From contig CAWCPV010000018.1 of assembly GCA_963797555.1 (NCBI GenBank), positions 1 through 64,000 on the forward strand: 64,000 nucleotides of DNA, given 5' to 3'. Of this stretch, positions 42,920 to 45,423 are shown piece after piece. Position 1 is the first letter of the stretch, and each line of letters starts with the position of its first letter. The stretch comes from an uncultured Gammaproteobacteria bacterium. Lineage in GTDB: Bacteria > Pseudomonadota > Gammaproteobacteria > CAWCPV01. Both the position numbers and the translations under genes were made by a program. The notes under the pieces are model-generated. The model saw only the letters and a program-made list of their open reading frames with translations. It did no database searches and was not told the DNA's origin.

Positions 42920-42948
42920 TCCCTCTGGAAGCAATGTCGCCTACCGAA

Positions 42949-43005
42949 TAGCATTTTATCCGTCGTGCGGCAGCATGATGGATAAAATGTGTTGAACTGA
43001 ACCGC
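42949..43005 (-). repeat. Left 57-bp terminal inverted repeat / putative recombination site
   Basis: Exact reverse complement of 45333-45389; internal hairpin CATTTTATCC..GGATAAAATG; GGTAGGC box at 42945-42939. Confidence 0.92.
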
Positions 43006-43252
43006 CGGATTCAGGCGGCCGGCCTATGGGGATGGTATGGGGGCAGTCCCGGGTTGGGGCCGCTTGGGGTGTGGCTGGTCGGGTGGTTATGTGGTGCATG
43101 GACCGCTCTCGCGGTCTCGGTCGGGTGTGATGTCCCCCGCCAGGCACTATGGCAAAGGTGCCGTGTACGGGTCAAGGGCTGGGGAAGACCAAAGGGGACT
43201 GTGGCCGGCTTGCAGGGAAGCGGTCGAGGGAGGCTTGGGCGGGTGAGGGTCG

Positions 43253-44470
43253 TCATGAGAGCCGTGGGGGTCCGGTCGCTTTCGGGGTGGGGGGTGTAGC
43301 CCTGAGCGGTGCCCCGAGGACTACCCGCGTGAGCCGCCCTTCTGCGCAGTAGGGGCAGCGCTGGATATCGATGCCGGTGAGGCGCAGCATGGTTTCCTGC
43401 GCCGACTCCGGTTCCCGCGGTTGCGGCGCTGGCTGGCCGAGAGCCGCCCGGCACCCGTCCAGGCGCTCGGCGCGGCATCGGTTCGCCAGCAGTCCGTAAT
43501 GGCGGATACGCATGAAGCCGGGGGGGAGTACGTGGAGCAGGAAGCGGCGGATGAACTCCTCGGCCCCAAGACGCATCACCTTCACCCGATTGCCCCGGGC
43601 GTAGTCGCGGTAGCGGAAACGCACCGTGTCGTCTTCGAGATCGAGGAGCCGCTCGTGGCTGATCGCGATGCGGTGGGTATAGCGCCCGAGGTAGGCCAGC
43701 ACCTGCTCGGGACCGGCGAACGGAGGCTTGGAGTAGACCACCCAGTCCTGGGAGCGCAGCTCGGTAAGAAAACGGGCAAAGCCCGGGGGCTCGACGAGCC
43801 CCGCCAGCTCGCCGGTGAAGCGCAGCTCGCCTCGCCCGTGGGCCGCCTGCAACGCTTCCAGGTACTTGCCCCGGAACACCCGGGAGAGCGCCCGGACCGG
43901 AAACAGGAAGCCTCGCTTGGCGGGAATCCAGCGGGCGTCGACGGAGAGCGCCCCGCCGGTCACGACACAATGCACGTGGAGGTGTTGGCCGAGGTTCTGG
44001 CCCCAGGTGTGCAGCACCAGGGTCGCTCCGAGATCCCCGCCGAGCCACCGGGGATTTCTGCCGAAGCTGAGCAGCGTCTCGGAGGCGGCCTGAAACAGCA
44101 GCCCGTAAACCACCCGTGGGTTGCCCTGTGCCAGCGGGTTGAGGGTATGCGGCAAGGTGAACACCACGTGGAAGTACTCCACCGGCAAGAGTTCCGCACA
44201 GCGCGCCTGCAGCCAGTGCTCCTTGGCCAGCGTCTGGCCCTTGGGGCAGTGGCGGTTACGGCAGGAGTGGTAACGCAGCTCGATGCGCCCGCAGCGGTCG
44301 CACTGCACCGCTTGAGCGCCCAGGAGCGGCGTGCGGCAGGCCACGATGGCCCGCATCACCCGGTGCTGCTGAGCGCACAGCCGATGGGTCGCCCGGAAGC
44401 GCTCCCCGTGGGCGCGGAAGATATCCGCCACCTCCAGCCGCCGCCCCGCCGGCGCGGGACGGGTGCACAC
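43253..44470 (-). CDS. IS91-family HUH/Y2 rolling-circle transposase with N-terminal Zn-binding domain
   Basis: CRT..LG...CDRC...SCRNRHCPK, YFHVVFTLPH, LHTWGQNLGQHLHVH, YLGRYTHR, RIRHYG, CPYC. Confidence 0.93.
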   Translation of the reverse strand: MCTRPAPAGRRLEVADIFRAHGERFRATHRLCAQQHRVMRAIVACRTPLLGAQAVQCDRCGRIELRYHSCRNRHCPKGQTLAKEHWLQARCAELLPVEYFHVVFTLPHTLNPLAQGNPRVVYGLLFQAASETLLSFGRNPRWLGGDLGATLVLHTWGQNLGQHLHVHCVVTGGALSVDARWIPAKRGFLFPVRALSRVFRGKYLEALQAAHGRGELRFTGELAGLVEPPGFARFLTELRSQDWVVYSKPPFAGPEQVLAYLGRYTHRIAISHERLLDLEDDTVRFRYRDYARGNRVKVMRLGAEEFIRRFLLHVLPPGFMRIRHYGLLANRCRAERLDGCRAALGQPAPQPREPESAQETMLRLTGIDIQRCPYCAEGRLTRVVLGAPLRATPPTPKATGPPRLS

Positions 44471-44473
44471 TGC

Positions 44474-45142
44474 CTAGAACTGCGTGGGGCTCTCGGGGAT
44501 CTCCAGCAGATCGAGCGGCGAGGCGGTGCCGGTGAGATGCGGCCTTGCCAGGTGAAAGTAGCGCAGGGTAGTGCTGAGGTGCCCGTGGCCCAACAGGCGC
44601 TGGATAGTGTGCAGATCCACTCCCGCCTCCAGCAAGTGGGTGGCGAAGGCATGCCTCAGCCCGTGGATGCCGCAGCGCTTGGTGATGCCCGCCTTGCGCT
44701 TGGCTGCATAGTAAATCTTCTGGGCCGAACGCGGATCGATGGGATGCACCCCATCTCGCAGGGGAAAGAGCCAGTGCTTGGGCCGATAAGCCATCCAGTA
44801 GCGGCGAACAGCCGCTTGATCTCCTCGCGGCTCAGGATCTCGGGAAGCCTGGAGGGCTGTCGGGGGCTCGGCAGACAGAGGCTCGGCCTCGGAGCGCCCC
44901 AGGCTGACTCGGTAGAAGAACTTCAGGCCATTGGCGACGATGTTGCAGGTGCTGCTGGAAAGTCCCCGCTCCGGAAGCCCGTGCAGCAGGTAGCTCTGTA
45001 CCTCGGGCTCGGAGATCTCATCGGGGCGGCGTCGGTAGAACCTGGCCAGACCCCGGACCGCATTGAGATAAGCCTCGCGGGTGCGCACCGCCATCCCCCG
45101 CAGCACCACGTCGTTGTCCATCTTCGTGCGTAGCTCGCTCAT
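44474..45142 (-). pseudogene. Tyrosine recombinase with SAM-like N-domain (non-IntI), internal deletion plus frameshift
   Basis: [12 protein letters not shown]..., [52 protein letters not shown] is in a shifted frame and box I (GLR) is missing. Confidence 0.88.
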
Positions 45143-45332
45143 GACCGCCTCCTTTCAAGCAGTGAGTGGGAAAGACCCACGCAAAGCTTGGCAGAGCGCT
45201 CATGAGACCTCGCAAAACGTCAGGCGAAGATGGCGATCCGGCCAATGGCCGGCCGCATTACAGCGCCAAAATAGCGGAGCAGTTCAGCCAGAAACAATGC
45301 GAAAACGTCAGGGAAACGAAACCACCGCGTAA

Positions 45333-45389
45333 GCGGTTCAGTTCAACACATTTTATCCATCATGCTGCCGCACGACGGATAAAATGCTA
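45333..45389 (+). repeat. Right 57-bp terminal inverted repeat / putative attI-equivalent
   Basis: GCGGTTCAGTTCAACACATTTTATCCATCATGCTGCCGCACGACGGATAAAATGCTA, followed by GTC-GTTAGCT (45393-45399). Confidence 0.92.
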
Positions 45390-45423
45390 GTCGTTAGCTG
45401 CAGAAAGTATATCGAGGTAACAC

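Follow-up and report, generated by a model that had tools for sequence, protein, structure and literature searches.

What is the hairpin that lies, as two inverted copies, on either side of a decaying mobile element in an uncultured gammaproteobacterium? The element sits in a stretch of 64,000 nucleotides (contig CAWCPV010000018.1 of assembly GCA_963797555.1, hereafter the window), where a transposase gene of the IS91 family of insertion sequences (IS) and the remains of a tyrosine recombinase gene are found between two arrays of integron-type cassettes. A first-pass annotation had taken the two hairpins for the element's pair of ends, and had seen in them a new class of single-stranded DNA recombination site by which the core might invert. 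The answer towards which we lean is that ISAzo26-type IS91 elements have this hairpin as their downstream end and that it is likely the folded single-stranded attachment site of an excised circle, the second copy being probably a one-off join between two element copies. What is observed is the gene content, the place of the hairpin throughout the family, its covariation and strand bias, the preferences in the flanks and a chimeric right end; a single-stranded recombination site is the leading candidate for what they would amount to.

The two copies occupy 42941-43005 on the reverse strand and 45333-45397 on the forward strand, are 65 nt long each and are 97% complementary. They have an identical core of 57 bp (42949-43005 and 45333-45389), as the first-pass annotation had said, and the only differing bases, at 45390 and 45394, fall in the outer 8 nt, where that annotation had marked them too. 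The GTTCAAC-type end that it had described is present, but the start of the repeat has to be moved inward by 8 nt, and a 15-bp box belongs to the repeat as well. The 17-nt pattern of the hairpin arm has four matches in the window against 0.06 expected, and as many were found in none of 100 shuffles.

Is this hairpin special to the locus? The window transposase is 54% identical to that of ISAzo26, from the Aromatoleum plasmid NC_006824.1, which shares the gene pair and both types of end. Among 79 homologous loci, 67 have a hairpin end of this kind about 250 nt past the transposase stop codon; they amount to 46 distinct ends, found in Alpha-, Beta- and Gammaproteobacteria and Acidobacteria, among others; the other 12 loci were left out, five without the motif and seven with a wrong or truncated match. 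A covariance model of the family, R1, matches the downstream end of ISAzo26 at 27.5 bits and scores the left end of the window, which belongs to its training set, at 74.3 bits. From its position in these loci and from the ends of ISAzo26, we conclude by comparison that the hairpin is the normal, regular downstream end of a catalogued IS91 subgroup and nothing special to the window. Within this genome too, a hairpin, whole or decayed, follows the transposase end in the copies C17, C7, C8 and C13 and in both C4 copies, and the recombinase-side ends of the other copies (4/4) have no hairpin, only the 15-bp box and then unrelated flank. The idea of two hairpins as the element's pair of ends therefore has to be given up, since there is normally one. 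A comparison with 60 genomes of the same class gave one substantial match (G039), which was used for no conclusion.

ISAzo26-type elements (ISAzo26 and ISShvi3; ISSod25 is presumably a further name among them) resemble the window element in having a tyrosine recombinase gene directly upstream of a Y2 transposase gene, an upstream box with a small hairpin and a downstream end made of box, stem and tail. The two genes lie on the same strand in the window, where the recombinase gene is broken, and in locus L138. Unlike ISAzo26, the window element has a shorter terminal loop, a crossover after G into integron cores, a broken recombinase and an extra inverted downstream end, and its upstream end agrees with the ISAzo26 architecture only up to 45338. 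A related transposase is encoded in 377 plasmid records, a count of the transposase and not of the recombinase. In the open literature (ISfinder and subscription papers being outside the search) we found no description of the ends, the mechanism or the role of the recombinase in this subgroup; the nearest match is an ISShvi3 adjacent to an attC site, in the accessible part of PMC9229058. Two further features of the family can be mentioned. A conserved sigma-70-like promoter-like site is found 138-140 nt before the downstream box in the window and in L050, L052, L054-L056, L059, L060, L062, L063, L066 and L068; it would read into the next cassette if the element is integrated, and across the junction into the element genes in a circle. 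Also, tandem arrays of elements, with a downstream end joined to an upstream end, occur at L007:2900-8100, L073:5517 and L011:2894, the last one combining two different subfamilies.

The structure of the hairpin is better defined on one strand. The bottom strands of the two window copies fold at -14.5 and -15.3 kcal/mol (z -4.5 and -5.0) and the top strands at -10.2 and -11.5 kcal/mol (z -2.9 and -3.3), both with DNA parameters, so that the expected advantage of the bottom strand is borne out at about 4 kcal/mol; the bottom-strand stem is uninterrupted, with no bulge and no extrahelical base. The bottom strand is also the more stable one in 43 of the 46 distinct homologous ends. The stem covaries among the homologues: in 35 short ends, 96.7% of the cells are paired on the bottom strand, a level reached by none of 500 shuffles and compared with 27-44% in slid controls, and 8 of 14 pairs change on both sides. 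Because the homologues share kinship, changes were also counted on the transposase tree of 41 ends (five ends were left out), which requires at least 45 Watson-Crick pair-type switches, at 13 positions. The 650 stem cells of 50 ends (L034 being left out of the stem-cell and geometry counts) comprise 537 Watson-Crick pairs, 73 G:T pairs on the bottom strand, 3 G:T pairs on the top strand and 37 cells paired on neither. By these counts the stem is a conserved, covarying and bottom-strand-biased structure under selection. Anchored on a conserved TTAT/ATAA box, the spacers measure 5-7 nt in one arm and 10-12 nt in the other in 46 of 50 ends, the other four rows being mis-anchored, and 6 and 11 nt in the window copies. 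The spacers of 1 and 6 nt given earlier were rightly called non-canonical, but their lengths depend on the register chosen.

What would such an end be used for? The upstream end of the family is laid out as two variable bases, GAAC, the remainder of the 15-bp box and the small hairpin. The GAAC box followed by a CCGC-loop-GCGG hairpin amounts to a 5'-GTTC terIS with one subterminal palindrome, the form that the available text of PMC13181058 gives for IS801 and IS1294, where the cut falls at 5'-GTTC beside one palindrome and only the bottom-strand circle inserts. In the flanks of alpha-type elements upstream of the insertion (n=39), A is found at -10 in 33, T at -9 in 33, A at -8 in 24 and A at -7 in 22, and positions -6 to -1 are unconstrained. 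Downstream (n=26), A, T and G occupy +3 to +5 in 20, 19 and 20 flanks, respectively. These statistics leave out tandem junctions, and the C4a row is offset by one base. As read from the alignments, the flanks form an inverted arm pair around a 6-bp spacer that would be cut at its right edge, with no need for spacer homology, and they fit a tyrosine recombinase choosing the target. Inverted arms around a 6-bp spacer are the layout of Xer-type sites. The targets are attC/attI core sites in this genome and small inverted-repeat sites in Alphaproteobacteria. In addition, the upstream flanks of L007, L013, L017, L018, L020, L021, L029, L037, L044 and L138 hold a palindrome of about 32 bp, perfect or nearly so, whose end coincides with the insertion point; in other upstream flanks a second, directly oriented arm is found 16-17 bp farther from the element.

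The two end boxes, about 2.5 kb apart, are nearly complementary, and among 216 cells from 18 distinct pairs the mismatches include 16 that are G:T on the bottom strand and none that is G:T on the top strand. Such a bias between distant boxes would be understandable if a circle brought them together as a pair. A model of the junction has a folding energy of -29.9 kcal/mol on the bottom strand and -22.3 on the top strand; on the bottom strand it forms one long hairpin with a single 5-nt bulge by the crossover, which accounts for the earlier spacers of 1 and 6 nt. Ahead of GAAC stand two bases that differ even between identical copies; in only 9 of 28 alpha-type copies are they the same as the bases flanking that copy downstream, which suggests that the cuts for excision and for integration are made at different positions. 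Beta/gamma copies have TT on both sides. A 2-bp target duplication was considered and judged unlikely, as the own-flank match is limited to those 9 of 28.

Flanks constrained on two sides of a free 6-nt spacer, together with the lack of the IS91 target tetranucleotide GAAC beside the downstream end (0/44 flanks, and none of this genome's copies), make it likely that the HUH enzyme produces a single-stranded circle that the recombinase integrates at the folded junction. In this model, the HUH transposase would release the bottom strand as a circle by copy-out, finishing at the end with GAAC that resembles terIS. In the circle the 15-bp boxes would pair and lengthen the stem into one hairpin, with the 5-nt bulge next to the crossover. 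The folded junction would then present a binding box, a 6-nt spacer and TT, which is the same layout as in the targets, and the element recombinase would exchange one strand at the right edge of the target spacer, leaving replication to resolve the product.

Could the hairpin be an HUH origin and nothing else, similar to oriIS, with the transposase doing all strand transfer and the recombinase at most binding targets or resolving by-products? For IS91-family elements the available text of PMC13181058 places oriIS downstream of tnpA, with subterminal palindromes and on the bottom strand, and the terIS described there matches the upstream end seen here. According to the same text, canonical IS91, IS801 and IS1294 also have in common with our element an HUH transposase, unlike ends, a GTTC-type terIS with a palindrome and a bottom-strand single-stranded circle. 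Unlike them, it has no target tetranucleotide by the downstream end, a two-sided target with a free spacer, an extra recombinase and pairable 15-bp boxes at both ends. An origin alone is hard to reconcile with the missing GAAC and the two-sided constraint, a local origin hairpin would not need the pairing bias between the two end boxes, and a complete recombinase with its motifs is retained in at least 50 of 65 homologous loci. We thus regard an origin-only hairpin as rather unlikely.

Several points nevertheless weigh against the recombination site that we favour. An oriIS of the IS91 kind would also be expected to favour the bottom strand, as only the bottom-strand circle inserts (PMC13181058). 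Template switching can make inverted repeats uniform and so imitate covariation, and the bottom-strand skew could arise from mutation bias in single-stranded DNA, although in either case the bottom strand is the single-stranded one. The homologues are related and several come from shared genomes. The target constraint is weaker in Acidobacteria-type elements, of which 3 of 20 have the TAN triplet at 6 nt upstream, and in beta/gamma-type elements (6/11 at 6 nt and 3/11 at 7 nt), and 16 of the 216 outer-stem cells are mismatched on both strands. The stem has no extrahelical base and the intact homologous recombinases that we aligned lack the IntI-specific insertion.

A second possibility is that the hairpin is a non-canonical attC for the host integron integrase, so that the element would depend on the integron, as its passenger, for moving or for gathering cassettes. 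The genome does encode an intact integron integrase of 321 aa with an array of at least four attC sites (G000:C7:43755-48503); a second, partial intI is found at C3:989422, with three attC sites near. Both window copies and the C4a copy precede true cassettes whose first bases follow a crossover between G and TT, and one recombinase-side flank in the genome is the right half of a classic attC, placing that upstream end at R'. Published fragments also speak for it: some attC sites recombine without extrahelical bases (PMC5027507, in the part available) and the ISShvi3 mentioned above lies adjacent to attC (PMC9229058). The end shares with attC and IntI the bottom-strand hairpin, the crossover between G and TT, the variable terminal loop, an R''-like box complementary to the element's own first bases and a recombinase of the Integron-like subgroup, in which IS91 recombinases were placed, without the IntI insertion, in the accessible part of bioRxiv 542381. 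The right copy even has GTTCAAC and GTTAGCT as R''- and R'-type boxes with AAC/GTT, and the left copy has GGT at the crossover.

The geometry tells otherwise. What defines an attC site are its R and L boxes, 5-6 spacer bases per arm and 2-3 extrahelical bases (PMC5027507, as far as its text is available). The element end differs in having no extrahelical bases, unequal spacer arms, a conserved TTAT/ATAA box and a recombinase without the IntI insertion that travels with its site. Since a MAFFT alignment of 11 attC sites of this genome was too poor, a covariance model of attC was not built and a rule on L''/L' geometry was used. The window scored 2/7 by this rule and 47 element ends 0-3/7, against 6-7/7 for 13 attC sites of the genome, a positive set that the rule itself had picked (30 matches, many of them false, of which 13 were retained by eye). 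The R1 model did not match any attC, whether in the window or in those loci with attC sites that were searched, and the same end is carried by elements with non-GTT flanks and a crossover after A, the base that alpha-type ends have at that position. Against the TIGR02249 profile, element recombinases reached at most about 95 bits per stretch, compared with a cut-off of 265 and with 502 for the host IntI. By all these comparisons, the hairpin is not an ordinary attC, as the first-pass annotation had anticipated, and an integron passenger is improbable. The new class of single-stranded site proposed there survives as a covarying, strand-biased structure distinct from attC; it is not confined to this locus, being the regular end of a catalogued subgroup.

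How did the window element acquire its second, inverted downstream end? The right end is chimeric, with the small hairpin of the upstream type followed by sequence of the downstream type. Base 45339 is C, as in downstream ends, and it is T in 10/10 beta/gamma-type upstream ends and in 4/4 of this genome; the join therefore falls in the 7 bases common to both end types (45332-45338). An inverted hairpin was found at the upstream end of 0/72 homologues (three of these being tandem junctions) and of 0/4 other copies in the genome. An exact-pattern scan of metagenomes, restricted to short beta/gamma-type ends, returned two matches, L122 and L123. L123 is a likely parallel double end on a contig that stops before the recombinase; L122 was dropped, as it is a plain upstream end with no hairpin. 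Judging from these data, the second copy is probably a one-off join between two element copies inside the shared repeat, rare and accidental. A deletion between back-to-back copies, in which the boxes are direct repeats, would give the double end in one step; alternatively, a flipped circle junction could have recombined with a normal copy. Insertion of one element into the R''-side core of another was rejected, as it would predict T at 45339 and a different left flank. Whatever the route, the join would have created two cassette arrays that point outward from a dead core, with only the left one downstream of the promoter-like site.

A trivial explanation would be that the second copy is an assembly join at the 15-bp repeat common to both end types and not real DNA. 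The join does fall in a repeat of a multi-copy element, and no aligned contig crosses 45275-45400. Public sequencing runs covered at best a share of 0.37 of the window, four of them yielding short contigs of relatives that span neither junction. The shared stretch, however, is only 7-15 bp long, unique sequence continues on both sides, a similar arrangement exists in the unrelated metagenome contig L123 and one contig of sequencing run X1 covers 45370-45614 with three differences, although no more than 23 of its letters reach into the side of the hairpin. We consider an assembly join very improbable.

The C17 copy (G000:C17:48277-51233) is a sibling of the window element, 99.9% identical and with the same recombinase lesions, that has a plain upstream end and keeps the same orientation relative to its downstream flank. 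About 10 downstream-flank bases are common to it and the window left end, and an internal piece of its recombinase gene is displaced about 600 bp past its upstream end. The proposed inversion of the core, swapping the arrays, thus finds no support in the assembly: C17 shows one orientation with a single hairpin, and no flipped or reciprocal form was found in the 85% complete assembly. An inversion would exchange expression between the arrays, as the promoter-like site faces the left one alone, but there is no sign of it. That the twin ends form a selected invertible switch choosing which array lies downstream of the element promoter, as their 57 identical inverted bp, the cassettes pointing outward on both sides, the conserved outward promoter-like site at one end only and the one likely independent case of L123 might suggest, is extremely improbable given the single-ended homologues and genome copies, the dead recombinase, the single-ended C17 and the expectation that single-strand exchange between opposite-strand sites would not yield a clean inversion.

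Returning to the folded attachment site of an excised circle, we tentatively propose, without going so far as to call it probable, that ISAzo26-type elements are self-mobile 'proto-cassettes', in which a single-stranded circle made by the HUH enzyme is integrated by an IntI-related recombinase through a bulged junction hairpin free of extrahelical bases. CTX phage uses a folded single-stranded phage site on a single strand made by an HUH enzyme. It borrows the host XerCD, whereas ISAzo26-type elements encode their own recombinase. CTX insertion at dif is similar in being a tyrosine-recombinase insertion that requires replication, a dependence that IntI insertions share (PMC9345347, in its available part); strand-biased circularizing elements, described in the same text, have no HUH enzyme and no inverted-repeat target. 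If our proposal is true, proto-cassettes would use a third kind of single-stranded recombination site, alongside those of integrons and of CTX, and would serve as a living model of how attC and IntI originated, and rearranged copies like that of the window would seed divergent cassette arrays. The recombinase of this IS91 subgroup has no described job, though the subgroup is widespread. The end anatomy defines substrate, strand, cut position and target layout, which makes the role testable with a close relative of IntI and folded strands without extrahelical bases; whether such strands recombine bears on the origin of integrons. In this genome, the location of the elements at cassette boundaries and their outward promoter-like site suggest that they may activate cassette arrays and rearrange them. 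The double-ended copy, probably an accident, is of lesser importance.

Table 1. Features of the element and its flanking cassettes in the window.
Feature	Coordinates	Strand	Remarks
Integron-type cassette with alpha/beta hydrolase gene (42017-42934)	42017-42944	-	Pfam PF00561; begins at the crossover between G and GTAG
Normal downstream element end	42945-43005	-	15-bp box 43005-42991, 38-nt hairpin 42989-42952, 6-nt tail
Promoter-like site (putative), pointing outward across the hairpin	43146-43175	-	position kept in 11/13 beta/gamma-type homologous ends
IS91-family Y2 (HUH) transposase, 405 aa	43253-44470	-	PF04986 214 bits, PF14319 99 bits; N-terminal zinc domain
Broken tyrosine recombinase, SAM_4 and phage integrase domains	44474-45142	-	Pfam scan; intact relatives without IntI-specific insertion
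Small upstream-end hairpin (CCGC-loop-GCGG), terIS-like family signature	45324-45337	-	
Second, inverted downstream-type end replacing the plain upstream end	45333-45393	+	crossover after G at 45393
Integron cassette with VIT1-family gene (45424-46122)	45394-46219	+	PF01988; canonical attC 46160-46219

The coordinates of the element are collected in Table 1. The decay of the recombinase gene noted in the first-pass annotation was confirmed by comparison with the C4 copy, which has 190 nt more at 44804/44805 and a further 1 nt at 44879/44880; the window gene no longer encodes the first catalytic Arg or the Lys. In the transposase, a glycine replaces one cysteine of a zinc-binding pair, and all aligned contigs from the sequencing runs differ at 44239. 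The left-end crossover falls after the G at 42945, and both flanks are true cassettes, each starting at an element crossover. Beyond the stop codon, the hydrolase cassette closes with half an attC, the left one, whose R'' and L'' boxes lie near 42010-42025, and the attC of the VIT1 cassette has an R'' box complementary to the first 7 bases of that cassette.

Elsewhere in the genome, a 26-nt tandem duplication of the 3' arm of the hairpin plus crossover lies behind the C4b copy (G000:C4:566297-566348). Stand-alone sites similar to the 3' arm and tail, with 1 and 3 mismatches in 21, occur at G000:C16:144077-144097 and G000:C14:66632, neither with a 5' arm or an element; the first precedes a long open reading frame. 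In the window, the left array continues with a second cassette on the reverse strand (40013-41960), which looks reductase-like from a motif; it is split by a multi-copy insertion sequence of 1659 bp (40196-41854), and its end is an R''-like box, after which comes a further repeated element. On the other side, the attC of the VIT1 cassette is followed, in the region 46220-47985, by a cassette of low G+C content interrupted by an IS630-like element (DDE_3), with a further multi-copy element after it. Finally, an array of 15-bp tandem repeats occupies 57215-57528, within an open reading frame with no Pfam match.

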